Shown here: piece after piece, positions 1,209 through 63,496 of the stretch
How positions within the stretch are numbered: the stretch's first letter is position 1
Layout of the letters: each line of letters starts with the position of its first letter
Assembly (NCBI GenBank): GCA_963838215.1
Contig: CAWIQG010000004.1
Span: 166,826 to 230,825, forward strand
Direction: 5' to 3'
From: an uncultured Bacteroidales bacterium
Lineage (GTDB): Bacteria; Bacteroidota; Bacteroidia; Bacteroidales; VadinHA17
Length of the DNA stretch: 64,000 bases
Made by a program: the position numbers and the translations under genes
The notes under the pieces: model-generated
Told to the model about the DNA's origin: nothing
What the model saw: the letters and a program-made list of their open reading frames with translations, nothing else
The model's database searches: none

Positions 1209-1344
1209 ATTATTGATAATTATGCAAATGTTTAAACATGAAGGTAACAAAACTTGTTCAAATATAAAAGTGTTATTACTTCACTTTCTTTCAGTATTTT
1301 ATTAACTGGTACTATTCTTTTTCACTACATATATTTGTTCCATT

Positions 1345-1373
1345 CAAATAAAAAGGGCTCGTCATGGAGCCCC
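1345..1373 (-). terminator. Rho-independent terminator downstream of the 185-aa gene
   Basis: On the minus strand, GGGCTC-CATGAC-GAGCCC hairpin (1355-1373) followed by TTTTTATTTG. Confidence 0.55.
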
Positions 1374-1401
1374 TCAATATTTCATTCTGTAATTTTATTG
1401 G

Positions 1402-1959: not shown

Positions 1960-2008
1960 TTTCCTGAAAATTTTGGTGAGTTGTTTGATAATGTATTAGA
2001 CAACCAAT

Positions 2009-2016
2009 CAAAGGTA
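2009..2016 (-). promoter_or_regulatory. candidate Bacteroidota -7 box (TACCTTTG on minus strand)
   Basis: Matches TAnnTTTG about 50 nt upstream of ATG 1959. Confidence 0.35.
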
Positions 2017-2196
2017 AACATTCCTTAGAATAAATAAAAAATTATCAGAATGATGCATTTATTACGGTCTTCAGATAATTCAGTTGTCAGCCTGAATTAA
2101 TTATTTGATGTAAGATCCTCATTTATTTTCACTTATAATCAAACAAGAGAAGGGCATGAAAATTAAAATAAATTTTGACTCAAGTATTAAAAACTG

Positions 2197-2204
2197 TAAC
2201 TTTG
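2197..2204 (+). promoter_or_regulatory. candidate Bacteroidota -7 box (TAACTTTG)
   Basis: Matches TAnnTTTG 37 nt upstream of ATG 2241. Confidence 0.4.
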
Positions 2205-2240
2205 ATTGAGGTCTTTTTCAACTGATTAAATACTACTCCT

Positions 2241-49318: not shown

Positions 49319-49843
49319 TCAAAACACCATCGTCCGGACGTGTACCTTTTTTAATGCTCTCAGATATTCTTCGAGCAGAATACGCTGTTTTTCATCTCCT
49401 TTCAGTTCGAGAATGATAAGCCCTGCAGGTTCACCGAAGAATAGTTCATTCACTCCCAGCCGGGTCCGGATATTACAACCATACGCAGTAAGAACTTTTT
49501 GAACAGATAAAATAACGTCATGATCTCTTTCAACAAGAAGGCCCAGAATTTCAACATTATTCCTGACAGGATCAATATTTAAAGTCTCCTTTTTATCTGT
49601 GAAGATCATTTCGCGGAGCTCTATTCCGCCCAGTTCCTTCAGCTCCTTTGTAAGCTTATCTGAATCAGCGGGATCGCCATTAAGATGAAGAATAATATAC
49701 GCCTCACGACTGCAGACTTCATCAGTCACTTCATGAAATCCAAGACGGGTTGTAATAACAGCGGCATGACGGGACAAGATTCCCTGTGTCAATCCGGCTT
49801 CTTTTATTCTGTCGATGATTTTTATTCCGAGAACCTTTATCAT
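49319..49843 (-). CDS. tandem-duplicated TM1266-like 'iron-only hydrogenase system regulator' (NikR C-terminal/ACT-like fold)
   Basis: 174 aa made of two roughly 85-aa halves with the same pattern (VLGIKIIDR...ITTRLGFHEV...YIILHLNGD...ELREMIF versus ILGLLVERD...IRTRLGVNEL...LIILELKGD...HVRTMVF). Lies between hydG and hydE. Confidence 0.65.
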   Translation of the reverse strand: MIKVLGIKIIDRIKEAGLTQGILSRHAAVITTRLGFHEVTDEVCSREAYIILHLNGDPADSDKLTKELKELGGIELREMIFTDKKETLNIDPVRNNVEILGLLVERDHDVILSVQKVLTAYGCNIRTRLGVNELFFGEPAGLIILELKGDEKQRILLEEYLRALKKVHVRTMVF

Positions 49844-50074: not shown

Positions 50075-51499
50075 TCAGAAATATAAGTCTCTTTCCCCTT
50101 TCTTAATTCTTTCAATTTTCTCTTTTGTAATAATAGCCACATTAGGCTCAAGTTTTTCCAGGTTTTTTTCAATTGCCTTCCATCCTTTTTCCACTGTTTC
50201 TCCCTGAGCATAGTCGCAGATATATTCCGAGAGAGTCAGAATAGCGTTAGGTGTGCAGAATCTTTTAATAAACCCGGGTACTGAAAATTCCATAAAATGT
50301 TCGCCAGTACGTCCCATCCTGTAGCACGAAGTGCAGAATGAAGGCAGATAATCGTTTGTGAGTAATTCGTCGATCACTTCAGCCAGCGATCTTGCATCAT
50401 TTATCTTAAATTGTTCGCGATTCAGATCCTGTTTCTCATTTTTTGAGTCAGAATATGAGCCAAGCTCAAGTTTTGTTCCACCATCTATTTGGGAAACACC
50501 ATATTGCATGGCTTCTTTCCTTACATCAGGAGCTTCTCTTGCAGTCAATATCAAACCTGTGTAAGGGACTGCAAGTCTCAGTATAGCAATAAGTTTTTTA
50601 AAATCTTCATCATTTGTCTGGTATTTTCCGTCAATGTTCAGGCTGAGGGCATCTTTGATACGGGGAAATGAGATTGTATGCGGGCCCACATTATAACATG
50701 CCTCAAGATGATTGGTATGCCGTACAAGTCCCAGAACTTCAAACCTCCAGTCGTACAGTCCGAAAAGAGCGCCTATTCCCACATCATCAATTCCTGCTTC
50801 CTGCGCTCTGTCCAAAGCTGTAAGCCGCCATTCAAAGTCTTTCTTTTTACCTCCCAGATGATACCATTTATAAGCTTCGGGATGATATGTTTCCTGAAAT
50901 ATCTGATAAGTTCCTATACCGGATCCTCCTACAGTTCTAAAGCCTTCAATGTCGAGTGGAGCTGCATTTATATTTACCCTCCTTATTTCGCCCCGACCTT
51001 TCTTAACTCCATAAACAATTTTAACTGTTTGGGCGATATATTCCGGTGAGTAATCAGGATGTTCTCCATAAACCAGGATAAGTCTTTTCTGCCCGTTATC
51101 TTCAAGCGCTTCAACTTCTTTGATCAGTTCCTCATTACTCAGGGTTTTCCTGATTGCATCCTTATTCGAAATTCTGAATCCACAATACTGGCAATTATTT
51201 ATACATTTGTTACCAACATATAGAGGAGCAAAAAGCACGATCCGGTTTCCATATACCTTCTCTTTCAGTTCTCTTGCCCCCTGTTTAATCTCATCAGCGA
51301 GATCGGTGCCGATTGAATTTACCAGTACGGCAGTTTCCTGCATTGTAAGCCTTTGTTTATCAAGCGATTTAGCGATAACATCCCTCACCCTTTGCCTTTC
51401 AGGTTTTGTGTTTTTTATCAATGCCCATATCTCTTCAGGATCAATGAATTGTTTCATTCGCTGATCGGGAATACTCAACTTCTCAGGTGAAAACCTCAT
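50075..51499 (-). CDS. hydG: [FeFe]-hydrogenase H-cluster radical-SAM maturase HydG
   Basis: 474 aa. YVGNKCINNCQYCGF radical-SAM motif and C-terminal FCTSCYRMGRTGEHFMEF...FCTPNA cluster motif. Confidence 0.9.
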   Translation of the reverse strand: MRFSPEKLSIPDQRMKQFIDPEEIWALIKNTKPERQRVRDVIAKSLDKQRLTMQETAVLVNSIGTDLADEIKQGARELKEKVYGNRIVLFAPLYVGNKCINNCQYCGFRISNKDAIRKTLSNEELIKEVEALEDNGQKRLILVYGEHPDYSPEYIAQTVKIVYGVKKGRGEIRRVNINAAPLDIEGFRTVGGSGIGTYQIFQETYHPEAYKWYHLGGKKKDFEWRLTALDRAQEAGIDDVGIGALFGLYDWRFEVLGLVRHTNHLEACYNVGPHTISFPRIKDALSLNIDGKYQTNDEDFKKLIAILRLAVPYTGLILTAREAPDVRKEAMQYGVSQIDGGTKLELGSYSDSKNEKQDLNREQFKINDARSLAEVIDELLTNDYLPSFCTSCYRMGRTGEHFMEFSVPGFIKRFCTPNAILTLSEYICDYAQGETVEKGWKAIEKNLEKLEPNVAIITKEKIERIKKGERDLYF

Positions 51500-51565: not shown

Positions 51566-52486
51566 TTAGTATATAAGGTCCGATATCTCTTCTTTTGCCA
51601 AATTAATCCTTACGATTGTTTTATTATCGTAAATATTAACAGAACCATATATTTTTTTATGAAAGTATATTGTAATTTTCTGGTCAGAAAGAGACCACGA
51701 ATTATCAAAAACATTCAAAAGAACTTCTCCTTTATCTTCCTGGTTTTTATGAATTACTACCAAACCTTTTGAAAAAAAAGATCCGCTTTCAGCTGATACT
51801 GCGTAAATTCCGTATGAAGGAAGAAGTTTGCATTCTTCTGTAAGTGGCACTTGTACAAATGGAGGCAGCTCAATAGAAGCCTCACTGACGTACTTTATCG
51901 GTTTCCCAATGATAATGTAATAGTGATCAAGATAAGCATTTGCCCTCTGGATATATCCCTCGCTTATAGCCTGGCGTATTTTTGTTGAACTGACCGTTTC
52001 GTGCTGAACCTCCTGTTCAGGTATATCTTCGGCTTCAAAATTATATTTCCCCTGCCATGCCCAAAGTTGTTTATAATCTCCTTCCTTATTGAATCCAAAA
52101 TGATGGTTAAATCCTGAAACAACTACCTTAGCATGTAAAATACCATGAAGAAAATCTTTAACAAACTGCTCGCTGGTAATTTTAGAGAACTCCCTGGTGA
52201 ATTCTATGATGATAACATTATTAAGACCGGTTTTCTCAAGGAGCTCCAGTTTTTCCTCCTGCGAATAAATAAGCTTCAGGTCCTTACCTGCAGTATCGGG
52301 GTAAAGCACTTTCCTGGGATGCGGGTCAAATGTGATGAGCACCGATTCACCGTCGTGCTTCTCAGCCAGCATTTTTAACCGTTTAAGAATGGTCTTATGT
52401 CCGATATGAACCCCATCGAACGATCCGGTTGTCACAACAGGATTTCTGATAATCTTTGCATCTTCAAAGTTTCTGAAAATATTCAT
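51566..52486 (-). CDS. ribF: bifunctional riboflavin kinase / FMN adenylyltransferase
   Basis: 306 aa. VVTTGSFDGVHIGH motif. Confidence 0.9.
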   Translation of the reverse strand: MNIFRNFEDAKIIRNPVVTTGSFDGVHIGHKTILKRLKMLAEKHDGESVLITFDPHPRKVLYPDTAGKDLKLIYSQEEKLELLEKTGLNNVIIIEFTREFSKITSEQFVKDFLHGILHAKVVVSGFNHHFGFNKEGDYKQLWAWQGKYNFEAEDIPEQEVQHETVSSTKIRQAISEGYIQRANAYLDHYYIIIGKPIKYVSEASIELPPFVQVPLTEECKLLPSYGIYAVSAESGSFFSKGLVVIHKNQEDKGEVLLNVFDNSWSLSDQKITIYFHKKIYGSVNIYDNKTIVRINLAKEEISDLIY

Positions 52487-52498
52487 GAAGGCAGAATC

Positions 52499-53122
52499 CT
52501 AAATTTTATTTTCTTTCACAAAGTATGCAACTTTCTCGATAGAGGTAATCATATCATATTCTTCGAGATAGACTCCTGACGGAACATTTAAAGGAATAGT
52601 TGTAAAATTGAGAATACCTTTTATTCCGTATCTGACTGTTTCTTCAGCTATTTCCCTTGCATATTCAGGTGGAACAGTAAGAATGGCTATTCTTATATCG
52701 AGTTCTGTTATTATTTTTTCTATATCGCTGTAAGGATAGCATTTCACTCCCGAAATGACTTTATTAACCTTCTGGATATCGTTGTCAAACGAAGCCACAA
52801 GATTCAGTTTTGACCGTTTCCCCTTAAAATAACCTGCTACAGCTCTTCCCAGATTTCCGATTCCAATTATTGCGACATTCATGCTCACTTCCGAATCAAT
52901 GATAATTCCAATTTTATCAATAAGCTCCCTGACGTCGTATCCTTTTCTAAGAACACTCGAATATCCAATCAGCATCAGATCGCGCCTGACCTGTACTGCA
53001 GTAATGTGAAGACGGGCGGCCAGCTCGTGAGAAAAAATGAAGTTTCTCTTTTCATTAAGGCACTCCAGAAGTGTCCTTCTGTATTCACTCAGCCTTTCTA
53101 CGGTTCTTCCTGGTAATTTCAT
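52499..53122 (-). CDS. rex: redox-sensing transcriptional repressor Rex
   Basis: 207 aa. N-terminal winged helix (RLSEYRRTL...ISSHELA) and Rossmann AIIGIGNLGRA. Confidence 0.9.
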   Translation of the reverse strand: MKLPGRTVERLSEYRRTLLECLNEKRNFIFSHELAARLHITAVQVRRDLMLIGYSSVLRKGYDVRELIDKIGIIIDSEVSMNVAIIGIGNLGRAVAGYFKGKRSKLNLVASFDNDIQKVNKVISGVKCYPYSDIEKIITELDIRIAILTVPPEYAREIAEETVRYGIKGILNFTTIPLNVPSGVYLEEYDMITSIEKVAYFVKENKI

Positions 53123-53152
53123 AATAGAATAATTGATTTTGATGTCTTAATC

Positions 53153-53164
53153 ACGAAGCTTCGT
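53153..53164. promoter_or_regulatory. perfect 12-bp palindrome ACGAAGCTTCGT upstream of rex
   Basis: Lies in the 61-nt spacer between the REC-kinase stop and the rex start. Confidence 0.3.
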
Positions 53165-53183
53165 AACTCAATTCATCATTAAT

Positions 53184-54320
53184 TTAATTAAAGGTTATTG
53201 GTTTTTTTGGTAATCTTATTGTAAACACTGTTCCAACATCGGGTGTGCTGTCAACCTTAACTGTACCATGATAAAGTTCCACGACTTTTTTAACAATGGA
53301 CAATCCAAGTCCGCTACCGGATATATTCCTTGTCTTTTCGTTTTTAATTCTTACAAATTCGGCAAACAGGTTATCTGTGTCATTTTTTGTTATACCTATT
53401 CCCGTATCGGAAAAAATGAGAATAGCTTCACTATCAGAACTATCAATGGTAATTTCGGCTTTTCCACCTATTTTATTGTACTTTACTGCATTAGAAATGA
53501 GATTATTAAAAACAATCTCCATATCATCGGGGTCAGCCATTATAATGGCATCAGAGCGAACATCAAGATTAATGCTTACATCCATCTGGATCGCATAGGG
53601 CTGAACAGTTATTATTGCATTTGAAGCCACTTCAGAAAGATTGACTTCCTGTATTTTTTCCTCTTTCCTTTCAAGACGTATCTTTGTAAAATCAAGAAGG
53701 TCCATAATAAGGTTTCTCATTCCCTGTATCCTTTGAAGAGATCTTTCGATTGGAGTTGCATAATCTTCAATTCTGTCCCCTGACTGCTTCTCCTGCATCA
53801 TCCTGAGATATCCTTCCAGTGCATTTAATGGAGCCTTCAATTCGTGTGAAAGAACTGAAAGAAACTGGTACCTGACCTTCTTCCCATCCTGTTTCAATTT
53901 ATGCGTTATTCTCTTCAGATACTGTTGTTTCGTAATGTTTTCGATGCTCGATTTTAATTCCTGTGGAGTAAATGGTTTTGGGATGAAATCAATGGCTCCA
54001 TCGCGGGTAGCCCTTAATGCAACATCAAGCGATGCATACGATGTGATCATTGCCACGACAATATCATAGTTCCTTTTTTTTATGTACTCAAGTACATCCA
54101 CCCCCTGTATTCCCGGCAACTTATTATCGAGCAAAAGGATATCCGGCATATCGTGTTCAAGAATAGTGATACCTTCTTCGCCTGTTCCGGCTTCAGTCAC
54201 TTCAAATGTATAATCCTCATCCATAAAAGGATAAGTGACATGGAAATTGTTCAGTATCCTGGAAACCCCTGAACGTATTCCCGGTTCATCATCAATGACA
54301 AGTACTTTTAAAACAGCCAT
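53184..54320 (-). CDS. hybrid REC-HisKA-HATPase protein (receiver-regulated histidine kinase, soluble)
   Basis: N-terminal REC (VLVIDDEPG, ILLLDNKLPG, IPKPF), H-box LSHELKAPLN, G2 GSGLGLSIVKKV. No TM segment and no DNA-binding domain. Confidence 0.85.
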   Translation of the reverse strand: MAVLKVLVIDDEPGIRSGVSRILNNFHVTYPFMDEDYTFEVTEAGTGEEGITILEHDMPDILLLDNKLPGIQGVDVLEYIKKRNYDIVVAMITSYASLDVALRATRDGAIDFIPKPFTPQELKSSIENITKQQYLKRITHKLKQDGKKVRYQFLSVLSHELKAPLNALEGYLRMMQEKQSGDRIEDYATPIERSLQRIQGMRNLIMDLLDFTKIRLERKEEKIQEVNLSEVASNAIITVQPYAIQMDVSINLDVRSDAIIMADPDDMEIVFNNLISNAVKYNKIGGKAEITIDSSDSEAILIFSDTGIGITKNDTDNLFAEFVRIKNEKTRNISGSGLGLSIVKKVVELYHGTVKVDSTPDVGTVFTIRLPKKPITFN

Positions 54321-54321
54321 A

Positions 54322-54717
54322 TTATAGTTTTAAGAGTTTCATAACCTCCTGATCAAGCTGTTCGGGTCTGATACCTTTTTCAAGATATTTGTCAGCCCTG
54401 ATCCATGATTTTTCCTGTTCTGAATCGATACTGAAAGATAAGCCTGTTTCGTGCGATACTGCTGTTGCAAGTATAACAGGTACGTCAGGATATTTTCTCT
54501 TTAACTTATAACACAGGATAAAGCCGCTGTCGTCACTCTCCATCATCAGGTCAAAAATTGCCAGATCAGGTTTGAATCTGGCAATAACCGATTCAGCCTC
54601 TGTCTGGCTCTCCACGGCCATGGTTTTGTATCCTGCCTTCTCCAGATTAAATACAGTCTGAAAAAGATAATCCGGATCATCATCTGCAATCAATATTGTA
54701 AAATCACTCTTCTTCAT
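54322..54717 (-). CDS. stand-alone receiver (REC) protein
   Basis: 131 aa. ILIADDD, AIFDLMM, ILATAV and YLEKG supply the conserved D/D/T/K positions. No output domain. Confidence 0.85.
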   Translation of the reverse strand: MKKSDFTILIADDDPDYLFQTVFNLEKAGYKTMAVESQTEAESVIARFKPDLAIFDLMMESDDSGFILCYKLKRKYPDVPVILATAVSHETGLSFSIDSEQEKSWIRADKYLEKGIRPEQLDQEVMKLLKL

Positions 54718-54793
54718 CTTTCTACAAATTTCTAAAAATTCTTTAAATCAACCAGTTATTATGATAAATATGATTGTAGTTATTTTATTAACA

Positions 54794-54847
54794 GTGTGTG
54801 GTTCGGGGTGTGTGGCAAGAGGCATACTCAACCGCAAACCTCAAACG
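54794..54847. repeat. GC-rich short repeats (GTGTGTGG x2; heptamer CTCAACC/GCAAACC/TCAAACG)
   Basis: gtgtgtgg at 54794 and 54808. Three degenerate 7-mers at 54827-54847, directly after the sensor-kinase stop (minus strand). Confidence 0.7.
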
Positions 54848-54861
54848 ACGTACCACTGATC

Positions 54862-56823
54862 CTATTCTTTTCGTCTCGGTAACACAATTTTGAAGCTTGT
54901 TCCTGTTGGCCCTTTTGCAGAATTATTATTCGATTCAGCTGTAATCTGCCCTTTGTGCATTTTGACAATACCATATGCGGTTGCCAGCCCCAGTCCTGTA
55001 CCTTGCCCAATACTTTTAGTAGTAAAAAAAGGTTCGAAAATCTTAGCTCTATCTTCCTCCCTGATACCTGTTCCGGAATCGCTTATAGTAATAATAACAT
55101 CACCCAGAGTATCTTCCAGACTGATATCAATTTTCCCTCCGCCCGGCATTGCGTCAATCGCGTTTTTTATCAGATTTGTAAAAACCTGCATCATTTGTTC
55201 CGAATCGAGCATTGCCTCAGGGTTTGTTGTTAAATCCAAAACATTAATTTTAATTTTTTCAGGAACAATCATACTCTCAAGGCTATGATTAACAAGCTCT
55301 TTAATACTTACTATCTGGTGGTTCACCTGGTTCTTCCGCGCAAAATTAAGCAACCCTGCGACAATTTTTTTGCATCTGCCGGCCTGCTCTACAATGAGTT
55401 TAAGATCTTCCCGTACAGGATCCCCGGCAGAGGATTCTTCCAGAAGGATGTTGCTGTACATTATCACTACTCCAAGAGGATTATTAAGCTCATGAGCAAT
55501 ACCGGCTGAAAGCTGACCCATGTGAGCAAGTTTTTCTGATTGTTTCAGAGCCTGTTTCATTGAGGAGAGCTTCTCGTTCGACAATGCAAGGTCTTTTACC
55601 GACTTGTGAAGCTTTTCAATAGTATATGGAAGGCACATCTCGACTTCTGCAAGACCCTTTTTAATAGCTATTGCATGCTCCACACAACTTTCATAGCCGC
55701 AGGCACCACAATCGAGCTGGTCTTTCTTTGTTTTCTTGCCCATTCTTATAAGAACATCGTTCACATCATTTTCATCCAGGACAGCAATTCGATGATCCTC
55801 AGCCTTATGACGGAATGAAAGATCAAGCTCTGCAAATTCATCAAATGATTTTTGCCAAAAATCGGAATCAATATTCTGCATTTTACTGTTTGCATAGGAA
55901 CTTACAAGTGCCCGTCTGTTGTACTGTTTTCCATTTTTCGATAATCCGGGCCCCATTATACATCCTTCACAACAGAGAAGTTCCATGTGCTGGTTCTTTA
56001 TCAATCCCGCTTCAAATTCTTTTAATGCGCCCTGAAAATCTATCCTCCCTTCGGCGGCAATAATATTACCTGTGATAGCATTATCGCTGATTTTGGCTGT
56101 CTGAAGCAATCCGCGTGCTACAGGGAAAATAGCACCTCTTCCACCTACAGGCTGGTCAAAATCAATCAGTTTACTGTTTTCAGGAGTGATATCCCTGTCG
56201 GCAAACATATCTCTTAATTCAGTAAAGGTTATTGCCTCATCTATTTCGACGCTTTCAGCTTTTTTTGCAATGCATGGTCCTATAAAAACAATTTTTGCAT
56301 CCTTACCATATTTTTCACGTATCACTCTGCTCATCGCCACCATTGGAGAAACTATCGGAGCCAGATTATCAACAAGAGCCGGATGATAGTATTTGATGTA
56401 GTTTACAATTGAAGGACAATCAGACGAAATATAAAAATCTCTGCTTTCCGTGACGAGTTTTTTATATCGATCTGCCACAAGGTCAGCACCAAAAGAGACT
56501 TCCGCCACATATTCAAATCCGAGCGCCTTTATCATACCTATGAGAACACGGTAGTCAGCAAAATCAGAGAATTCAGCCGGGAAACTCGGAGCAATAATAG
56601 CAGCAACTTTCTTTTCATTTTCAAGAAGTTTTACTACCCTGTCAGTTGTATTCAGAAAAACTTTTGCACCCTGGCTGCATACTTTGGTACAATTTCCGCA
56701 TGCTATACACCTTTCGTCTATAACCTCGGCCTGTCCTCCGACAATACGAATAGCTTTGGCAGGGCATTCCCTTACACAGGTATAGCAGGTACGACAAAGT
56801 TCCTTTATTGTATAAACCAGCAT
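54862..56823 (-). CDS. [FeFe]-hydrogenase-like sensor fused to a histidine kinase (ferredoxin + H-domain-like + Cx2Cx4Cx16C + HisKA + HATPase)
   Basis: CRTCYTCVRECP and CIACGNCTKVCS; H-domain-like motifs SSDCPS, GPCIAKKAE, LLCCEGCIMGPG; DCGACGYESCVEHAIAIKKGLAEVEMC; H-box GIAHELNNPLG; GTGLGLATAYGIV. Confidence 0.85.
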   Translation of the reverse strand: MLVYTIKELCRTCYTCVRECPAKAIRIVGGQAEVIDERCIACGNCTKVCSQGAKVFLNTTDRVVKLLENEKKVAAIIAPSFPAEFSDFADYRVLIGMIKALGFEYVAEVSFGADLVADRYKKLVTESRDFYISSDCPSIVNYIKYYHPALVDNLAPIVSPMVAMSRVIREKYGKDAKIVFIGPCIAKKAESVEIDEAITFTELRDMFADRDITPENSKLIDFDQPVGGRGAIFPVARGLLQTAKISDNAITGNIIAAEGRIDFQGALKEFEAGLIKNQHMELLCCEGCIMGPGLSKNGKQYNRRALVSSYANSKMQNIDSDFWQKSFDEFAELDLSFRHKAEDHRIAVLDENDVNDVLIRMGKKTKKDQLDCGACGYESCVEHAIAIKKGLAEVEMCLPYTIEKLHKSVKDLALSNEKLSSMKQALKQSEKLAHMGQLSAGIAHELNNPLGVVIMYSNILLEESSAGDPVREDLKLIVEQAGRCKKIVAGLLNFARKNQVNHQIVSIKELVNHSLESMIVPEKIKINVLDLTTNPEAMLDSEQMMQVFTNLIKNAIDAMPGGGKIDISLEDTLGDVIITISDSGTGIREEDRAKIFEPFFTTKSIGQGTGLGLATAYGIVKMHKGQITAESNNNSAKGPTGTSFKIVLPRRKE

Positions 56824-56842: not shown

Positions 56843-58564
56843 TCATAATAACACATTTCTTTTTTCAAAATGAGTATAAAATATCTTTTTATTTGTAATG
56901 TCATTATTTTCTTTTAAAAACTTCTCATAGAGATTAATTATTGCCGGTGATTTGCAAGGTAAATTAATTGCTTCAGTATCATCGGTCTGATAAATAAATT
57001 TCGCCCGATTCCTGATTTCTTCTTTTGAAGTACTGAAAGGCAGTCCTGCTCCATGTACACATCCCCCGGGACACGTCATCACTTCAATAAGATCGTATTT
57101 TTTACCTGAAACAGTAGATGTTCTTAGTTTTTCAAGACCCGTAAGCCCGTCAATTACAGCTATATTCAACTCAGTTTCGCCAATATATACTTTTGTCTCC
57201 CTGAAGGACCCACCAGACCGGAGTTTTTTAAAAAGCTGTTTGTCAACCTCTTTCTTAAGTTTCAGAAAATGGAACGAACGTATAACTCCTTCAGCCAATC
57301 CGCCTGATACTTCAGCCAGTACCGCTGCAGAACTTCTCCCTGCCATTGGTTCGTCTGCCGGTTCATGTTCAATATTTGTTGTGTCTATACCATATAACCG
57401 TATAAGCCTGGCTAGTTCTCTTACAGTCAAAACAGAATCAACGTCACTTATTCCCTTTCTCATCATTCCATCGCGACGGGCTTCAAATTTCATTGCCATA
57501 CAAGGAGTTACAGATACCGAAAAGATTTCTTCCGGTTTCGCACCTGACTGTCCGGCAACAAGTGTTTTAACCAGAACCCCGGTTATCTGTTGCGGCGATT
57601 TTACTGTGGAGAGCTGCGGAATTAGCGAAGGGATGAACTGCTCTGCATATTTAACCCAGGCCGGGCAGGCAGAAATAATTAAAGGTGTTTCAGATTTATT
57701 TTCAATTTTTTCTGATAACTGACCGGTAATTTCAGTGATACATACATCAGTGCCTGTACCTGTTGTGAATACTTTATCGAAACCTATCTTGCGCAGAATG
57801 GCATTCAGTATTTTATCAAATTCCCTGTTGTACCTCATCCCGAGTTCTTCAGCAATTCCGACAGTCACCAAAGGGGAATACTGAATGATTTTAACAATAT
57901 CAGGTTTATGAAGGTATTCCTGAACTTCGGTTATGTTATGCTTTTCATGAAGTGCTCCGGTAGGACAAACGAGCACGCACTGGCCGCAATGAATACAACT
58001 TGAGAAGTTGAAATCTTTGTCCATTGCTGCCCCGATATGTGTCTCTTTTCCTTTATTAATAAAATCGAGTGAAATTGAAGTTATGACCTCCTCACAGACT
58101 CTGACACATCTTCCGCAAAGAATACATTTCGAGAGCTCCCTGACAATGGCAGGGCTCGACTGGTCGAGATGAGGTTTTATCTTTTTGCCTCGTATCCGTC
58201 GCTCCCGGATGTTCAGTTCTTCAGAAAGACGCTGCAATTCACAATTCAGGTTCCTGTCGCAATAAAGGCAATCATCCGGATGATTTGAGAGAAGAAGCTC
58301 AACTATCGTTTTTCTTGCCATTATCACTCTTGGGGAATGGGTTTTTATTTTCATCCATTCTTCTACTGGCTGAGAGCAGGCTGTGACCAGACGGTCGCGA
58401 CCATCGACTTCAACTACACACATTCTGCAGGCGCCTGTCGGAGTAAACTCCTTCATCCTGCAAAGAGTAGGAATAATGATCCCGTTACGATTAAGGGCTG
58501 AGAGAATAGTCTCACCTTTTTCAGCCCTGATCTTTTTATTATTTACCTGTATTGTAAAAAGCAT
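56843..58564 (-). CDS. hydA: [FeFe]-hydrogenase large subunit HydA, CpI-like M3 architecture, non-canonical active-site surroundings
   Basis: 573 aa. N-terminal 2Fe-2S, His-ligated 4Fe-4S (HPDDCLYCDRNLNC), two ferredoxin motifs, H-domain motifs ISACPAW / TPCMAMKFE / EVMTCPGGCVHGAG, small-subunit-like C-terminus (SPAIINLYEKFL...YTHFEKR). Confidence 0.85.
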   Translation of the reverse strand: MLFTIQVNNKKIRAEKGETILSALNRNGIIIPTLCRMKEFTPTGACRMCVVEVDGRDRLVTACSQPVEEWMKIKTHSPRVIMARKTIVELLLSNHPDDCLYCDRNLNCELQRLSEELNIRERRIRGKKIKPHLDQSSPAIVRELSKCILCGRCVRVCEEVITSISLDFINKGKETHIGAAMDKDFNFSSCIHCGQCVLVCPTGALHEKHNITEVQEYLHKPDIVKIIQYSPLVTVGIAEELGMRYNREFDKILNAILRKIGFDKVFTTGTGTDVCITEITGQLSEKIENKSETPLIISACPAWVKYAEQFIPSLIPQLSTVKSPQQITGVLVKTLVAGQSGAKPEEIFSVSVTPCMAMKFEARRDGMMRKGISDVDSVLTVRELARLIRLYGIDTTNIEHEPADEPMAGRSSAAVLAEVSGGLAEGVIRSFHFLKLKKEVDKQLFKKLRSGGSFRETKVYIGETELNIAVIDGLTGLEKLRTSTVSGKKYDLIEVMTCPGGCVHGAGLPFSTSKEEIRNRAKFIYQTDDTEAINLPCKSPAIINLYEKFLKENNDITNKKIFYTHFEKRNVLL

Positions 58565-58569
58565 ATATG

Positions 58570-60507
58570 CTATTTAACGGTGATTGCACTAAATTTACAG
58601 ATGTCGAAACAGATACCACAGCCAGTGCATTTTTCCTCAACAATGAAGAATGGCTGAAGTCGTGTTCCATAAATCGCATTAACAGGACATTTGGCAGCAC
58701 AGGCTGTGCATCCTGTACATTTTTCCACATCGATGGAAAAAGTCCTTAACCCTCTGCATATATTTGCCCGGCATTTCCTGTCGAAAATGTGTTCTTCAAA
58801 TTCATCCCTGAAATTTTTCAAAGCACTGATAAACGGGTTAGGAGCTGTCTGACCGAGACCGCACAGAGATGTATCCTTCATTACCGATGCAATTGTCTCG
58901 AGCTGCATGACTCCCTTGAACCGTTCAAGAGTAGTACCGGATTCTTCATTTAAAGGTTTTTTTATTACGCTATCAAGGATTTCGAGCATCCTACCCGTGC
59001 CTTCACGGCAGGGGATGCATTTTCCACAACTCTCATTTCGCATGAATTCCATATAATATCTGACGAGGTCGACCATACAGGTGTTTTCATCTATTATTAC
59101 AAATCCACCTGCACCCATTCCGATCCCTTTTTCCTTAAGCTCATCATAATCTATTGCAATATCGAGGTTTTCATTGGTTATGAATGAACCTGATGCTCCT
59201 CCTAACTGTATGGCTTTAAACTCTTTCCCTTCCCTTATCCCATCAGCTATTTCTTCCAGGATTGTCCTTATCGTCGTACCCATTTCGACCTCAATCACTC
59301 CTGACATCCGGCCTTTTCCAGCCACGGCAAAAACTTTCGTGCCCGGACTGTTTTCCGTTCCGAGTGTCCTAAACCATTCCGGACCGTTCTGCATAATGAG
59401 CGGGACATTCATTAGAGTCTCAACATTATTTATTACAGTTGGTTTTCCGAATAATCCCGCTGTAGTCGGATATGGAGGTTTAAGGCGCGGCATTCCCCTT
59501 TTTCCTTCAAGAGTATTTATAAGAGCCGTTTCTTCTCCGCAGACAAAGGCTCCTGGTTCTTTCCGTATTACAACATCGAGGTTATAGCCACTTGAAAAAA
59601 TATTATGCCCAAAAAGACCATATTCTCTTGCTTTGTCAATTGCTTTCTGAAGCTTGTTGAGAGCATGATCAGATCCTGATCTCATAAATATTATAGCATT
59701 TGAAGCTCCTATTGCGTACGATGCAATAGCAATACCTTCAATGAGACGATGCGGGTCGCTTTCAAGAATGGTCCTGTCAGTGAAGGCTCCGGGGTCGCTC
59801 TCCTTAGCATTACAGATCAGATACCTTGCGTTCGAACTTGCATTAAGAGCATGCTTCCACTTGAGACCAGTAAGATAACCTCCACCGCTTCTTCCCCTCA
59901 GTCCGCTCTTTTCAATAATATCACAAACCTCCTCAAAGGTATAATGTCTGATTGCCTTAATATAGGCACGATATCCACCGCGAGCGATGTATTCTTCAAT
60001 GCGTTCAGGATCGTAACATCCGCAATTGTCGAGAACCACTTTTTTCTGATTGGCAAAGAAAGGTAAATTATCCAAAAATGGGATCCCGTTCCATAATTCA
60101 AATCCTTTGGTTCCGGTTTGCCCAACGAGGTCATCCTCGTTTATATCATTATGGAAAACACCATTGAGAAGAGGTTCAACCTTCTCCTCGGTTATATTTC
60201 TGAAGTATAACTTATTTTTCCCGGGAATATGAACACATACTATGGGCTCAAAATTTGAAGGTCCTGTACAACCCACGCGTACTAATCCCACAGCTGGCTC
60301 ATTTTCTGTAATATAAGTCTCGATGGAAGAATAGGTTTTTTCCGATCCGGCTATGATACTGCTTGTACCGGATGAAACAAAGATTACAGGTTTATCGGGT
60401 TTTTCCCGTCTTACCTGTTGCAATATCTTTTCTGTTTCCGGTGACAATGTATCGGATTCAAATAAAAGAACCTTTTCGATAATGAAAGTTTTTAAATCTT
60501 CCATCAT
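58570..60507 (-). CDS. hydB: NuoF-like HydB subunit (thioredoxin-like N-domain, FMN/NADH module, 4Fe-4S, C-terminal 2x[4Fe-4S])
   Basis: 645 aa. GLRGRSGGGYLTGLKW, CGEETALINTLEGKRGMPRLKPPYP, ESCGKCIPCREG, SLCGLGQTAPNP, and terminal CTGCTACAAKCP / CTGCGICFDIC. Confidence 0.85.
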   Translation of the reverse strand: MMEDLKTFIIEKVLLFESDTLSPETEKILQQVRREKPDKPVIFVSSGTSSIIAGSEKTYSSIETYITENEPAVGLVRVGCTGPSNFEPIVCVHIPGKNKLYFRNITEEKVEPLLNGVFHNDINEDDLVGQTGTKGFELWNGIPFLDNLPFFANQKKVVLDNCGCYDPERIEEYIARGGYRAYIKAIRHYTFEEVCDIIEKSGLRGRSGGGYLTGLKWKHALNASSNARYLICNAKESDPGAFTDRTILESDPHRLIEGIAIASYAIGASNAIIFMRSGSDHALNKLQKAIDKAREYGLFGHNIFSSGYNLDVVIRKEPGAFVCGEETALINTLEGKRGMPRLKPPYPTTAGLFGKPTVINNVETLMNVPLIMQNGPEWFRTLGTENSPGTKVFAVAGKGRMSGVIEVEMGTTIRTILEEIADGIREGKEFKAIQLGGASGSFITNENLDIAIDYDELKEKGIGMGAGGFVIIDENTCMVDLVRYYMEFMRNESCGKCIPCREGTGRMLEILDSVIKKPLNEESGTTLERFKGVMQLETIASVMKDTSLCGLGQTAPNPFISALKNFRDEFEEHIFDRKCRANICRGLRTFSIDVEKCTGCTACAAKCPVNAIYGTRLQPFFIVEEKCTGCGICFDICKFSAITVK

Positions 60508-60522
60508 AAGTGCATAACAGAA

Positions 60523-60993
60523 TTAGTCGTTTTCAACAACGTACTTTAATCTTTTAATCAGCTCGGGCAATTGTTCAGCTTTAATATGGATTTGATATTC
60601 TCCGTTAACATTAATTACCGGACCATTGTAACAACCACCCATGCATGAAACAATCTCATAGCTGAAATTCCCATCCCTGGTTGTTTGTCCGGGCATTGCT
60701 CCCGTTTCTTCTTTAATTTTATTAATGATTGATTGTGACCCGTTCAGGAAACAGGATGTGCCATTACAAATCCTGATCTGAACTTTTCCGGCAGGAATAA
60801 ACCTGAACCTGTCATAAAATGTTGCAAGGCCATAAATTTTTGTCGTACTTAACCCTAAAAAACCACCAACCCTGATAATAGCTTCTTCAGAAAGATATCC
60901 ATAATCTTCCTGTATTTCCTGAAGAAGAGGAATAAGATCCTCTCTTTTCCCCTGTTTGTATTTTTTCAGAATTATGTCAATATCTGAACCCAT
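60523..60993 (-). CDS. hydC: NuoE-like HydC subunit (thioredoxin-like 2Fe-2S)
   Basis: 156 aa. ICNGTSCFLNG and VSCMGGCYNGPVINVNG (Cx4C...Cx3C). Confidence 0.85.
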   Translation of the reverse strand: MGSDIDIILKKYKQGKREDLIPLLQEIQEDYGYLSEEAIIRVGGFLGLSTTKIYGLATFYDRFRFIPAGKVQIRICNGTSCFLNGSQSIINKIKEETGAMPGQTTRDGNFSYEIVSCMGGCYNGPVINVNGEYQIHIKAEQLPELIKRLKYVVEND

Positions 60994-61041: not shown

Positions 61042-61059
61042 TTGTTAATAAATAAACAT
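61042..61059. promoter_or_regulatory. second, imperfect Rex-like box (TTGTTAA-TAAA-TAAACAT)
   Basis: Perfect left half-site. The right half-site has 2 mismatches. Abuts the perfect box. Confidence 0.3.
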
Positions 61060-61076
61060 TGTTAATTTATTAACAA
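61059..61076. promoter_or_regulatory. Rex-type operator TTGTTAA-TTTA-TTAACAA
   Basis: Perfect 7-bp inverted half-sites with a 4-nt spacer, matching the clostridial-type Rex consensus TTGTTAAnnnnTTAACAA as I recall it. Located in the divergent hydC / 2Fe-2S-gene promoter region; rex is encoded 8 kb away in the same locus. Confidence 0.6.
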
Positions 61077-61286: not shown

Positions 61287-61556
61287 ATGAACAGTAAGAA
61301 AATGGCTCAAAGAATTGAAATGCAGATTTGTCTTGGCAGTTCATGTTTCTCCAGAGGTAACAAAGATGTGGTAATGTTCATACGCGAATACCTCAGGAAA
61401 AATCATCTCGATGACAAAGTCATTTTTAAAGGAGCGCGTTGTATGGACCGTTGCAGTAATGGTCCGAATCTTAATATAAACGGAATGATTATTGAGGATG
61501 TCACCATTTCAAAAATTGAGTGCATTCTGGAAAAAGAGCTTGCCAGATTTATATAA
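61287..61556 (+). CDS. small thioredoxin-like [2Fe-2S] ferredoxin (HfsA/NuoE-like)
   Basis: 89 aa. CLGSSCFSRG and ARCMDRCSNGPNLNING (Cx4C...Cx3C). Confidence 0.8.
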   Translation: MNSKKMAQRIEMQICLGSSCFSRGNKDVVMFIREYLRKNHLDDKVIFKGARCMDRCSNGPNLNINGMIIEDVTISKIECILEKELARFI

Positions 61557-61609
61557 ACTCAAATAAGTACCTGAAATGCACCGAAATTCGGGTGCTTAAA
61601 ATTATAAGC

Positions 61610-63496
61610 ATGATAAACGGAAAACCTGTTCTTTACATAAATGATAAAAAATGCAGAAATTCATATTCCTGCGTGCGTGTCTGCCCTGTAAATGCCATTG
61701 AGGTCAGGCCCCAGAAGGCGCATCCATATATCCTTCCTGCCAGATGCATAGGATGCGGATTATGTTATGTATCATGCACTCCTGACGCGATTGAGTTCCG
61801 CGACTCCAGCGAAGATGTGAAGAAATTATTATCATCGGGCAGGAAAACTGCAGCTCTTATTGAACCAAGTATTGCATCGGAGTTTGACGATATTACTGAT
61901 TACAGGAAGCTTGTTGCAATGATAAGATTGCTCGGATTTGATTATGTTCATGAAGGTTCGTTCGGAGCTGATCTGATAGCGGCAGCTTATGCAAAACTAT
62001 TCTCGAAAGCTGAAGGCAAGTATCTTATAACTGCCAACTGCCCGTCAATTGTTAAAATGATAGAAAAATTTCATCCGGAACTTGTGCCTAATCTTGCACC
62101 ATTAGTTTCACCGATGATTGCTACGGCAATGGTTGTTAAAGAGTTATATGGAGATGATGTAGCCACGGTCCAGATTGGGCCATGCATAGATGCGAAAGAT
62201 GAATCTTTGATTTATAATTCAGGTAAGCTTGTCGATGGGGTCCTGACTTTTGTTGAAGTGCGACAGCTTTTTGATGAATTCAGGATACAGGAGAGACTCG
62301 TAAAAATGTCGGATTTCGATCCACCGCATGGCAACTGGGGAGCCCTCTACCCTCTTCCTGCCGGCATTATACAGGCAGGAGGAATAAAACGCGATATGGT
62401 TTCGAGCAGTGTAATTACGGCTTCAGGAAAAGAAGAGATCCTTGAAGCAATTAATGACTTCGATAAGTACATTGACACTATTCAGCACCATTTTAACCTT
62501 TTCTTCTGTCACGGATGTCTTCTTGGCCCGGGTATGGAACAACATAACGAACGTTTCAGGAGAAGATCGCTTGTGCGGAAGTATGCAGAAAAGAGGGTTG
62601 GCAAACTTGATAAAGCGCTTTGGCAAAAGAATATGGAAAAATGGTCGAAACTCGATTTTTCAAGAACCTTCACACCTGACGACCAGAGAATTCCTGAACC
62701 TCCGGAAGAGTCTATAGCAGAAGTACTTAAAATTATCGGTAAAGACAATCCTGATGAAGAGATAAACTGTGGAGCTTGCGGATATCTATCGTGCCGCGAA
62801 TTTGCCTCGACGGTGGCAAAAGGGCTCGCAGTTCCTGAAATGTGTCACACTTTCAATCTTCGCAATAAGCAGGAGTATATTGAAACATTAAGACAGACTA
62901 ACCGAAAACTGGCTGAAACTAAAAAGGCTCTCAAAGAATCAGAAGAACTTGCCCGTCGGGAAAAGGAGATTGCCCAGAGTGCTTCGGATATGATGAATAA
63001 CATGCTCGAAAAGCTTCCAACCGGGGTGGTCATTGTGGACAATAATCTCAAAATACTTCATTCCAATCAAAGCTTTATTAATATAATCGGCGAAGATGCC
63101 AGGGCAATCTCCGATGTCATTCCCGGACTGGTTGGCGCTGATGTCAAGACTCTAATCCCTTTCAATGTATATAACATGTTTACATTTGTTATAAAAGAAG
63201 ATGAGCCTGTTGTGAGCAAAGATGTTCACTTTGAAGACAAAATGCTGAATATTTCAATCTTCCCAATAAGGAAGAATAAGATATGCGGGGCAATAATCCG
63301 CGATCTCTATTCCCCTGAAGTGCAAGGTGAAGAGGTGACAAACAGGGTAAGTGAAGTAATTGATAAGAACCTTGAAATGGTACAAAAGATCGGATTTTTG
63401 CTTGGAGAAGGCGCTTCAGAGACTGAACAGATGCTCAATTCAATTATCGAATCATATAAAAAGAAAAAAGGAAATCTGAAAAATAATCAGAAATAA
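61610..63496 (+). CDS. [FeFe]-hydrogenase-like PAS sensor (HydS/HfsB-like)
   Basis: Start moved to MINGKPVLYI. Ferredoxin motifs CRNSYSCVRVCP (one Cys missing) and CIGCGLCYVSC; H-domain-like TANCPS, GPCIDAKDE, FFCHGCLLGPG; NCGACGYLSCREFASTVAKGLAVPEMC; coiled coil; C-terminal PAS-like region (LPTGVVIVDNNLKILHSNQSF). Confidence 0.85.
   Translation: MINGKPVLYINDKKCRNSYSCVRVCPVNAIEVRPQKAHPYILPARCIGCGLCYVSCTPDAIEFRDSSEDVKKLLSSGRKTAALIEPSIASEFDDITDYRKLVAMIRLLGFDYVHEGSFGADLIAAAYAKLFSKAEGKYLITANCPSIVKMIEKFHPELVPNLAPLVSPMIATAMVVKELYGDDVATVQIGPCIDAKDESLIYNSGKLVDGVLTFVEVRQLFDEFRIQERLVKMSDFDPPHGNWGALYPLPAGIIQAGGIKRDMVSSSVITASGKEEILEAINDFDKYIDTIQHHFNLFFCHGCLLGPGMEQHNERFRRRSLVRKYAEKRVGKLDKALWQKNMEKWSKLDFSRTFTPDDQRIPEPPEESIAEVLKIIGKDNPDEEINCGACGYLSCREFASTVAKGLAVPEMCHTFNLRNKQEYIETLRQTNRKLAETKKALKESEELARREKEIAQSASDMMNNMLEKLPTGVVIVDNNLKILHSNQSFINIIGEDARAISDVIPGLVGADVKTLIPFNVYNMFTFVIKEDEPVVSKDVHFEDKMLNISIFPIRKNKICGAIIRDLYSPEVQGEEVTNRVSEVIDKNLEMVQKIGFLLGEGASETEQMLNSIIESYKKKKGNLKNNQK

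Follow-up and report, generated by a model that had tools for sequence, protein, structure and literature searches.

[quoted passage not shown] The window analysed here, a stretch of 64,000 nucleotides from an uncultured Bacteroidales bacterium, poses this question within a single polypeptide. A preliminary description of its sequence had noted a histidine kinase whose input domain is an [FeFe]-hydrogenase H-domain with aspartate at the proton-relay position, and had interpreted the protein as a direct transducer of H2 into phosphorylation. The ORF (653 aa; 54862..56823, minus strand, in the numbering of the window) and all the motifs quoted for it proved to be in place, and we characterized the product by means of the ORF listing, Pfam, an AF2 model and Foldseek. 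The best explanation, which we hold to be reasonably probable, is that it is a cytoplasmic sensor histidine kinase, putatively H2-responsive, with a HydS-type (Group C) [FeFe]-hydrogenase as its input.

The N-terminal part of the protein (all of its segments being given as minus-strand coordinates) begins with a 2x[4Fe-4S] ferredoxin-like domain at residues 4–53 (56665..56814), matched by Fer4 families of Pfam. Its cysteines 10, 13, 16, 20, 39, 42, 45 and 49 are each invariant or at least 90% conserved in an alignment (A1) of 55 relatives. The H-domain follows at residues 71–292 (55948..56613; PF02906, Fe_hyd_lg_C, E = 9.8e-44), and then a C-terminal cluster motif, Cx2Cx4Cx16C, consisting of C372, C375, C380 and C397 (55633..55710) and covered by a match to the FeS family PF04060 (residues 369–399); residues 371–397 read DCGACGYESCVEHAIAIKKGLAEVEMC. 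This spacing has also been described for the M2e and M2f enzymes (PMC8163306). In the AF2 model, to which DSSP was applied, one continuous helix of residues 398–463 (55435..55632) starts just past the last cluster ligand, C397, and extends into helix 1 of the DHp domain, where it bears His444. No PAS domain was matched by Pfam in this ORF, the helix running directly into HisKA.

The C-terminal part is composed of a HisKA/DHp domain (residues 435–498, 55330..55521; PF00512, 4.2e-13), which aligned to the cores of ZraS, CckA and KinB, and a HATPase_c catalytic domain (residues 540–651, 54871..55206; PF02518, 1.3e-25), which aligned to the ADP-bound ZraS chain. The H-box segment GIAHELNNPLG (residues 441–451) contains the phospho-acceptor His444 (codon 55494-55492), and the sequence has the boxes of the HisKA family: H box AHELNNPL, N box NLIKNAIDAM, G1 DSGTGI, F box FEPFFTTK and G2 GTGLGL. 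The kinase core is 33% identical to the ZraS core structure 9JFJ. HisKA kinases are dimeric, and by family analogy this protein probably is as well. The AF2 model had a mean pLDDT of 88.5, and its top Foldseek matches were [FeFe] hydrogenases and the ZraS kinase core. A Foldseek probability of 1.0 was obtained for the ZraS core and for more than 40 solved [FeFe] hydrogenase chains, CbA5H, DdH, TkHydA1, TmHydA and CpI among them, the latter over ~430 aligned columns with an rmsd of ~4 Å. In the model, each ligand lies in a strand–Cys–helix context, as would be expected of the H-domain fold. The protein is a soluble, cytoplasmic sensor kinase. That its N-terminal input is a complete sensory-type [FeFe]-hydrogenase module supports the preliminary description.

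The kinase gene lies in a conserved cluster. Upstream of it on the minus strand are three genes of a HydABC-type hydrogenase, hydC (60523-60993), hydB (58570-60507) and hydA (56843-58564), which form a block (56843..60993) whose last stop codon is 19 nt before the kinase start; this synteny is kept in 63–70 of 80 loci, many of which are incomplete. The HydA encoded here has a remodelled active site, with Ala at the relay position 299 and Met, Ala and Glu at positions 358, 417 and 418. Downstream of the kinase gene, on the same strand, lie genes for a stand-alone receiver protein of 131 aa (54322..54717; PF00072), a REC-HisKA-HATPase_c hybrid of 378 aa (53184..54320; by Pfam) and a Rex-type redox-sensing repressor (52499..53122; PF06971 and PF02629). 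The receiver gene adjoins the kinase gene in 76 of the 80 loci and is also found in the distant loci L082, L084 and L085; its product is likely to be the first phospho-acceptor. The hybrid is encoded in 72 of the loci as well as in L082, and Rex in 70, while at the Caldithrix locus, L083, the Rex gene precedes hydC. The order hydC-hydB-hydA-kinase-REC-RECHK-Rex is conserved across the 80 Bacteroidales species genomes, and the hydA-kinase-REC module recurs in distant lineages that include Caldithrix. Genes for HydE, a TM1266-like regulator and HydG adjoin the cluster; HydF was not located. Within the cluster itself, no DNA-binding response regulator or other output regulator could be identified.

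Divergently oriented on the plus strand is the gene of a second sensory-type H-domain protein, this one with a PAS region (61520..63496; L1 TANCPS, L2 GPCIDAKDE, L3 NLFFCHGCLLGPG). It is present in 58 of the 80 loci, and its translation probably starts at an internal ATG, Met31 of the listed ORF. As to the control of the hyd genes, the classical Rex pattern TGTGAA-N4-TTCACA showed no enrichment (6 found, 4.8 expected). One of its matches was a perfect palindrome and pointed to the Clostridium-type pattern TTGTTAA-N4-TTAACAA, for which there was a single perfect site. The predicted Rex-type box, TTGTTAATTTATTAACAA, is a perfect palindrome at 61059..61076, 66 nt upstream of the hydC start, and is accompanied by a copy with two mismatches at 61042-61059. 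Of 50 full-length loci, 40 have a box with at most one mismatch at the corresponding place; elsewhere in 897 kb such boxes are almost absent. A scan of 52300-55000 for sigma-70 promoters and terminators stayed at background level, with no minus-strand terminator past the kinase gene; it says little, because Bacteroidota promoters are outside the models used. The most likely function of the protein is that of a putative H2-responsive kinase, co-transcribed with hydCBA, feeding the adjacent REC protein and REC-HK hybrid, and under the control of Rex.

To assign the H-cluster residues, we aligned the H-domain with HMMER to CpI, T. maritima HydA and T. kivui HydA1. In L1 (SSDCPS, residues 133–138, 56410..56427), Asp135 (GAT, 56421-56419) falls on the CpI relay cysteine C299 and Cys136 (TGT, 56418-56416) on the ligand C300. 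In L2 (GPCIAKKAE, residues 182–190, 56254..56280), G182, P183, C184, K187 and E190 correspond to M353, P354, C355, K358 and E361, and this motif is invariant in 80 orthologs except for an I/V exchange at residue 185. In L3 (ELLCCEGCIMGPG, residues 281–293, 55945..55983), L283, C284, C285 and C288 correspond to M497, A498, C499 and C503; C284, the first cysteine of the CC pair, is therefore at a non-ligand position. Judged by sequence alignment and secondary-structure context, all four cysteines expected to hold [4Fe-4S]H, namely C136, C184, C285 and C288, are present, in agreement with the preliminary description. Its account of L3 was right about the ligand cysteines and needed refinement in two respects: the motif lacks one residue relative to Group A (C285-x2-C288 against Cx3C), which is typical of the clade of this kinase, and M497 is replaced with leucine. 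The Group A ending GGGQP is also replaced, with IMGPG. The CpI entry that scored best against the protein was the C299D variant 6GLZ, because both share SDCP.

Several residues lining the [2Fe]H pocket are kept in the alignment as well: P79/S80, S159/P160, K187, E190 and F233 correspond to P231/S232, S323/P324, K358, E361 and F417, and the equivalent of Q325 is Met161, as it is in 120 of 150 representatives. C136, C184, C285, C288, C372, C375, C380 and C397 are invariant among 55 relatives of 26–90% identity. The relatives listed first were 87–100% identical, and the diverse ones came from a search of 50% representatives. Judged from these sequences, the conservation of the motifs is far beyond chance. 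We rejected the idea of a decayed pseudo-hydrogenase because ligands and pocket are conserved here, whereas the ligand cysteines have been replaced in P0145 and P0233.

How might such a protein work? HydE and HydG, encoded nearby, would help to install the H-cluster. Binding and heterolysis of H2 there would change how the H-cluster and the F-clusters are reduced or protonated, and a conformational change, relayed by the C-terminal cluster domain and the helix, could then switch autophosphorylation of His444. From His444, the phosphate would pass to the adjacent REC protein, the REC-HK hybrid or both, with Rex adding NADH/NAD+ control to the same operon. H-cluster binding and reaction with H2 have been shown for HydS enzymes with Ala, Gly or Ser at the altered sites (PMC10055695, PMC8163306). 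[quoted passage not shown]

That same study found that H2 reduces an N-terminal cluster of TamHydS rather than the C-terminal one (PMC13104023), an observation that also suits a different explanation, namely that the protein senses a redox pool instead of H2. Its F-clusters would exchange electrons with ferredoxin or HydABC, the kinase would report their reduction, and the H-cluster would be a relic or serve a structural role. The three accessory clusters are compatible with this, as is the presence, in the same gene cluster, of an electron-bifurcating-type HydABC and of Rex, itself a redox sensor; PMC11406978 treats such proteins as an additional 'T' subunit of BfuABC. An unused diiron site is, however, hard to reconcile with the retention of the pocket residues K187, E190, P79-S80, S159-P160 and F233 and with the purifying selection on Asp135, and the lost ligand cysteines of P0145 and P0233 indicate that decay is visible where it occurs. 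We regard the redox-pool explanation as unlikely.

Very unlikely, in our estimate, is an H-domain that binds only the [4Fe-4S]H cubane, like Nar1/NARF, and senses O2, iron or cluster integrity. The departure of L1, L2 and L3 from the Group A consensus, the shortened L3 and the leucine at M497 would fit with it, and with the reported signatures the P1–P3 motifs were hardly discernible in Group C1 proteins of Hydrogenedentota (PMC11406978). The leucine, Leu283, counts against H-cluster-based sensing: according to work quoted in PMC10055695, Met497Leu in a prototypical enzyme severely cut the activity and reportedly left the variant without proper integration of the cofactor. Against a cubane alone, characterized HydS enzymes with comparably altered motifs do take up the [2Fe] subsite, the equivalents of K358, E361 and the APS and SP motifs are kept, and HydE and HydG have their genes close by.

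If the protein is an H2-responsive kinase, as we favour, what does the aspartate contribute? Asp135 is invariant in 81 sequences, although its codon varies between GAT (60) and GAC (20) in the 80 Bacteroidales species loci. The aspartate, constant despite this synonymous change, is real and selected. Beyond the orthologs it is rare, being found in three of 150 representatives (A49, P24, T20, S19, C13, N9, D3, H3), a spread resembling the HydDB-based figures in PMC10055695, and the closest non-orthologs carry threonine. In saturation mutagenesis of Group A enzymes, turnover reportedly stayed efficient when the relay Cys was exchanged for Asp, and C299D retains both H-cluster and activity (PMC3485046, PMC9563086), in line with the preliminary description. 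That description went on to suggest that Asp might allow slow turnover. The precedent of the substitution stands, but the Group A proton route does not, as the alignment places R119/Y120, K122, A155 and a gap at E279, E282, S319 and R286; with the rest of the canonical pathway missing, Asp135 restores no Group A route. Nor does slow turnover require Asp, since TmHydS, with Ala at the relay site, turns over slowly and becomes less active when this Ala is mutated to Cys (A131C; PMC10055695). It is extremely improbable that Asp135 makes the protein a competent turnover hydrogenase with a metabolic role, besides or instead of signalling: the Cys-to-Asp precedent and the naturally occurring Asp at the relay site (FTSDCPSW) of a Group-A3-type HydA in locus L084 speak for it, whereas the missing proton-pathway residues, Leu239 in place of E252 of TamHydS (by alignment reading), Gly and Leu at M353 and M497 as in slow sensory enzymes, and a C-terminal half that is an intact kinase speak against it.

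By analogy with the CpI C299D crystal structure, Asp135 is expected to be the sole conserved protonatable side chain beside the adt amine. [quoted passage not shown] The histidine 'pendulum' that a preprint describes for the proton entry of Group A has no bearing on this protein. A more specific proposal, which we consider decidedly unlikely, is that Asp135 has been selected as a dead-end proton acceptor. Once H2 has been split, the carboxylate beside the adt amine would hold on to the proton and the electrons would pass to the F-clusters, giving a long-lived 'H2-seen' state that switches the kinase through the helix from C397 to His444. The relay residues of the three H-domain proteins of the locus are Ala in HydA, Asp in the kinase and Asn in the PAS-type HydS, and only the kinase-fused protein has Lys at the K358 position. 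Were the dead-end proposal true, three relay residues at one locus would mean that proton handling has been re-partitioned among the H-domain proteins of this Bacteroidales lineage and that HydA has shifted to another active-site solution.

With respect to classification, several features of Group C HydS are found: the N-terminal 2x[4Fe-4S] domain and the C-terminal Cx2Cx4Cx16C motif (as defined in PMC8163306), a small residue (Gly182) at M353, a non-conserved relay position and genetic linkage to a Group A3-type HydABC. Loss of the relay cysteine and Met353Gly, which had been put forward as HydS traits, are documented as such (PMC8163306, PMC10055695). The PAS domain that follows the C-terminal cluster in M2f is absent, the PAS form being encoded separately (61520-63496). 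Group A is contradicted by D135 at the relay, G182 at M353, L283 at M497 and an L3 with Cx2C and IMGPG. Group D (M2e) was rejected: Gly182 occupies the M353 position, where Group D has Ser/Thr, and Leu239, which by our reading of the alignment (F233 = F417, G238 = G422) is equivalent to CpI V423, occupies the E252 site of TamHydS. Caldithrix sp. supplies the closest non-orthologous representative, and its phylum has the same cluster type (PMC11406978); together with that survey, this relative hints at HydDB subgroup C3.

The kind of protein is already known from genome analysis, and both its architecture and its gene layout are in the literature. HydDB defines 'histidine kinase-linked (putative)' Group C [FeFe] hydrogenases (PMC5037454), and a genome survey of 2024 describes a His-kinase-bearing 'BfuT' (Group C3) next to bfuABC and, for Bacteroidota, a pair of sensor genes, the first upstream of hydC/bfuC and the second downstream of hydA/bfuA (PMC11406978). 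The preliminary interpretation is supported in part: a kinase with a sensory-type H-domain holds, direct transduction of H2 into phosphorylation is putative, and the concept is not new. In the literature we found no biochemical study of a kinase-fused [FeFe] hydrogenase, and a text search for autophosphorylation in connection with the FeFe H-cluster was likewise empty. The value of the protein is that of a good experimental candidate, not of a new class: as kinase and input domain share one chain and a receiver is encoded beside them, autophosphorylation and phosphotransfer with and without H2 offer a simple readout, and the natural, conserved Asp provides a comparison for the C299D, C298D and C169D variants and a clean mutational handle on the relay site. 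What distinguishes it from the catalogued putative sensors is this conserved Asp at the position of the proton-relay Cys, its one unusual trait.

Among characterized enzymes, TmHydS (Thermotoga maritima; Group C, M2f) resembles the protein in the loss of the relay Cys, in the Gly at M353 (G177 there, G182 here), in the absence of the Group A proton pathway and in being encoded next to HydABC; it differs in having Ala131 and Ser267 where Asp135 and Leu283 are found here, and in ending with PAS rather than running on into HisKA/HATPase_c. TamHydS (Thermoanaerobacter mathranii; Group D, M2e), like the protein, lacks PAS and shares the accessory-cluster layout and the Leu at M497, but has the Group D Ser/Thr at M353 and a proton route of its own from E252, where Gly and Leu239 stand here, and its kinase-like gene is nearby and separate instead of fused. 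The kinase-linked Group C proteins of HydDB and the BfuT proteins combine the same H-domain and histidine-kinase domain immediately 3′ of bfuA/hydA, for BfuT with a second sensor gene upstream of bfuC in Bacteroidota, as at this locus; those surveys are at the genome level, without discussion of the relay residue. A Thr relay and a near-canonical HydA (TSCSPGW, MPCTAKKYE) characterize the Caldithrix-type relatives, in contrast to the Asp relay and remodelled HydA of this lineage. In the CpI C299D, CaHydA C298D and CrHydA1 C169D variants, Asp replaces the relay Cys just before the ligand Cys (SDCP), as here, but they keep E279-S319-E282-R286 and M353/M497, of which the natural protein has none. 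Finally, the [NiFe] regulatory hydrogenase HoxBC with its kinase HoxJ (HydDB [NiFe] Group 2b) is also a slow hydrogenase coupled to a two-component histidine kinase, one that controls hydrogenase expression; its metal site and fold are unrelated, and it is a complex in which sensor and kinase are different polypeptides, whereas here they form one chain.

The open reading frame at 54862-56823 on the minus strand encodes a protein of 653 amino acids, and every string quoted for it in the preliminary description was found at the residues assigned: L1 SSDCPS at 133-138, L2 GPCIAKKAE at 182-190, L3 ELLCCEGCIMGPG at 281-293, a Cys-rich stretch at 371-397 and GIAHELNNPLG at 441-451. The position of the proton-relay Cys of catalytic Group A enzymes (C299 of CpI; hereafter the relay position) is occupied by D135 (codon GAT, 56421-56419, minus strand), followed by C136 (TGT, 56418-56416, minus strand). 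Pfam delineated a 2x[4Fe-4S] ferredoxin domain (residues 4-53), Fe_hyd_lg_C (71-292, E = 9.8e-44), a PF04060 FeS motif (369-399), HisKA (435-498) and HATPase_c (540-651). An AF2 model built from a 55-sequence alignment had a mean pLDDT of 88.5 and placed each ligand Cys in the expected strand-Cys-helix context; in this model, a helix of residues 398-463 begins straight after C397 and continues into the DHp helix bearing His444. Foldseek matched the protein to the [FeFe] hydrogenases CbA5H, DdH, TkHydA1, TmHydA and CpI (probability 1.0, ~430 columns) and its C-terminal third to the ZraS kinase core. The protein is built like a HydS-type sensory hydrogenase in which a directly attached kinase core takes the place of the PAS domain.

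Residue equivalences were taken from HMMER alignments of the kinase to CpI, T. maritima HydA and T. kivui HydA1, and are given with CpI numbering in brackets. They comprise D135 (C299) and C136 (C300) in L1; G182 (M353), P183 (P354), C184 (C355), K187 (K358) and E190 (E361) in L2; and L283 (M497), C284 (A498), C285 (C499) and C288 (C503) in L3, where the Cx2C spacing is one residue shorter than the Cx3C of Group A, as is usual among the closer half of family members. Among CpI entries, the engineered C299D variant 6GLZ scored highest because it has SDCP in common with the kinase. The alignment also retains the pocket residues P79-S80 (P231-S232), S159-P160 (S323-P324), K187, E190 and F233 (F417); in CpI, P231-S232, S323-P324, E361 and F417 contact the diiron site. 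The canonical proton pathway is absent: E282 is replaced by K122 and S319 by A155, R286 falls in a gap, and E279 corresponds to R119 or Y120, according to gap placement. The alternative starting residue of Group D, E252 of the sensory-type TamHydS from Thermoanaerobacter mathranii, is Val in Group A and corresponds to Leu239 of the kinase by manual reading of the HMMER alignment.

Within its lineage, the substitution at the relay position is fixed. More than 7,800 metagenome relatives were scored, and the best 120 were all 87-100% identical to the kinase and 651-653 amino acids long. Scanning one genome per GTDB species, we retained the best 80 of 131 relatives, all from uncultured Bacteroidales or Bacteroidota MAGs and 76-91% identical. 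D135, C136, G182, C184, K187, E190, C285 and C288 are invariant in these 80 orthologs. The Asp135 codon is GAT in 60 of the 80 loci and GAC in 20, so that the amino acid has been maintained through drift at the DNA level. C284 (codon 55972-55974), an extra Cys immediately before the ligand C285, at the A498 position of CpI, is retained in 80 of 81 sequences, the remaining one having Ala; it is typical of an 'LCCxGCIMG' subclade that includes relatives with Thr at the relay position.

A HMMER search with residues 1-420 against 1.84 billion 50%-identity representatives gave 938 matches below 1e-30. In the best 150 of these, the relay position is occupied by Ala (49), Pro (24), Thr (20), Ser (19), Cys (13), Asn (9), Asp (3) or His (3), a spread in line with the figures for HydDB sensory sequences in PMC10055695 (Ala ~43%, Cys 17%, Pro ~10% and Ser ~10%). 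Of the Asp sequences, two are short fragments that share 59% and 75% identity with the query, and one, P0234, is a HydS without a kinase, encoded in a Trx-HydS-PP2C-HydC-HydB-HydA cluster; Asp therefore has at least two origins. The non-orthologs nearest to the kinase (48-53% identity) are in many cases kinase-bearing; their relay residue is Thr and their L3 takes the LCCxGCIMG form. Asp is thus a lineage-specific, fixed change within a kinase-fused subclade. Two other representatives, P0145 and P0233, have substitutions at the cluster-ligand Cys (L1 ASNDPV or MANDPV, L2 GPDIASKDE or GPLIATKKE), with P0145 lacking Cys in L3 as well, and are apparent pseudo-hydrogenase sensor domains that have lost H-cluster binding. 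The module of H-domain and C-terminal cluster also occurs with other outputs, namely GAF-GAF-kinase (P0168, 1035 amino acids), PAS-kinase and, in five of the 55 aligned relatives, sigma-54 activator AAA+ with HTH_8; the last would be a one-component H2-responsive enhancer-binding protein.

As to the role of D135, the statement in the preliminary description that Cys-to-Asp is the substitution that keeps activity was right: in saturation mutagenesis of CaHydA C298, efficient turnover was retained only with Asp (PMC3485046). C-to-D variants retain the H-cluster with their bias moved toward H2 evolution, and under reducing conditions the Hox population of CaI C298D stays high (PMC9563086). The further suggestion that Asp may allow slow turnover is weakened by the lost pathway residues and by TmHydS, the Group C enzyme of Thermotoga maritima, which turns over with Ala at the relay position and is slower as the A131C variant (PMC10055695); slow turnover therefore neither requires Asp nor is shown by it. 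The earlier interpretation is supported in part. On the better-supported reading, D135 would tune the H-cluster by hydrogen-bonding to the adt amine, by acting as a local proton acceptor and by shifting the redox equilibrium, and would thereby set the response of the sensor.

The relay Cys is absent from all three H-domain proteins of the locus, being Ala in HydA, Asp in the kinase and Asn in a PAS protein. HydA (56843-58564, minus strand) matches the bifurcating HydA1 of T. kivui at 1.3e-130, and its NCBIfam A6 score of 590 lies below the cutoff of 765. Its L1 is ISACPAW (C299 to Ala) and its L2 TPCMAMKFE (M353 to Thr and K358 to Met, with K359 retained); E279 is replaced by Ile, E282 by Gln, F417 by Ala, G418 by Glu and S232 by Leu, and L3 ends in GAGLP. 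The active-site pocket of HydA is thus remodelled. In Group A models, [2Fe] binding requires K358. Fifty-seven Bacteroidales orthologs share the L1 and L2 changes, which are absent from the HydA partners at three distant loci with related kinase-fused sensors (L082, L083 from Caldithrix sp., and L084); these partners retain the pathway and MPCTAKK. The remodelled HydA deserves separate study. On the metagenome contig of L084, a Group-A3-type HydA (1339-3060) has Asp naturally at the relay position (FTSDCPSWV) and is followed by the kinase-fused sensor P0126, with Asn there, and a REC gene. This HydA retains M353, K358, S319, E282 and R286, and with Asp and the retained pathway it looks like a natural counterpart of engineered C299D in a catalytic-type enzyme; Asp thus occurs as a relay residue elsewhere in nature. 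The partners at L082 (3465-5189) and L083 (7253-8974), like a chain of PDB 7Q4V/8A5E, have L1 TSCSPGW, which aligns with Ser at the cluster-ligating Cys300 position and Cys at the relay position, suggesting a register shift in the L1 loop.

The PAS protein, a second sensory-type H-domain protein (61520-63496, plus strand), and the small thioredoxin-like [2Fe-2S] protein that precedes it (61287-61556, plus strand) are encoded divergently from hydC. Its motifs, conserved in 39 orthologs, are L1 TANCPS, L2 GPCIDAKDE (K358 to Ala, with Lys at +1) and L3 NLFFCHGCLLGPG. The GTG start as listed gives an overlap with the upstream gene, so the true start is probably the ATG 30 codons downstream, Met31.

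The minus-strand genes run from hydC (60523-60993) through hydB (58570-60507) and hydA, which a 19-nt gap separates from the kinase gene, to REC (54322-54717, after a 144-nt gap), a REC-HisKA-HATPase hybrid (53184-54320), rex (52499-53122), the FAD-synthetase gene ribF (51566-52486), which lies between rex and hydG in 63 of 80 loci, hydG (50075-51499) and a TM1266-like 'iron-only hydrogenase system regulator' fused to a CPF_0552-family domain (49319-49843); hydE (48183-49283) is on the plus strand. No hydF was found among the ORFs examined at 39.5-64 kb of the window. Gene order around the kinase is conserved over the 80 loci wherever contigs are long enough, and the hydA-kinase-REC core recurs in L082, L083 and L084, with Rex ahead of hydC in L083. 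A perfect 18-bp palindrome, TTGTTAATTTATTAACAA, which we take to be a Clostridium-type Rex operator, lies at 61059-61076, 66 nt 5' of the hydC start, abutted by a two-mismatch copy at 61042-61059. A box with ≤1 mismatch occupies the equivalent place in 40 of 50 full-length loci and is essentially absent elsewhere in 897 kb. The kinase-REC gap holds a weaker, three-mismatch site (54777-54794), and in eight loci a good box also lies in the interval spanning this gap.

In the mechanism we propose, the H-cluster, which the neighbouring HydE and HydG would help to install, would react with H2; a redox or protonation change would alter the conformation of the H-domain and the C-terminal cluster domain; helix 398-463 would pass this change to His444; and phosphate would be transferred to the neighbouring REC protein, the REC-HK hybrid or both. 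The kinase gene cluster contains no DNA-binding response regulator. Rex may add NADH/NAD+ control over the same operon. Transmission is the weakest step: 1 atm H2 leaves the C-terminal cluster of TamHydS unreduced (PMC13104023), evidence against simple redox signalling by way of that cluster. The main rival explanation is that the kinase senses the redox pool, its F-clusters reporting the reduction of ferredoxin or HydABC. Conservation of the diiron pocket and selection on the relay residue make this less likely.

In the literature searched, we found no biochemical work on a kinase-fused [FeFe] sensor. The available parts of PMC11406978 and PMC10055695 do not single out Asp at the relay position, the latter naming Cys, Ala, Pro, Ser, 'etc.'. 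According to PMC11406978, Group C3 'BfuT' proteins carry a PAS or His-kinase domain and adjoin bfuABC; in the Bacteroidota Perlabentimonas, Tenuifilum and Williamwhitmania, bfuC is preceded by one bfuT and bfuA followed by a second. This two-bfuT layout is that of the kinase locus, and the nearest non-orthologous representative of the kinase, from Caldithrix sp., agrees with the cluster type in that account; the architecture and context had therefore already been described from genomes. The kinase would suit experimental tests of whether [FeFe] enzymes sense H2. It is a member of a known, still putative kind, with a rare residue-level variant, and not a new class.
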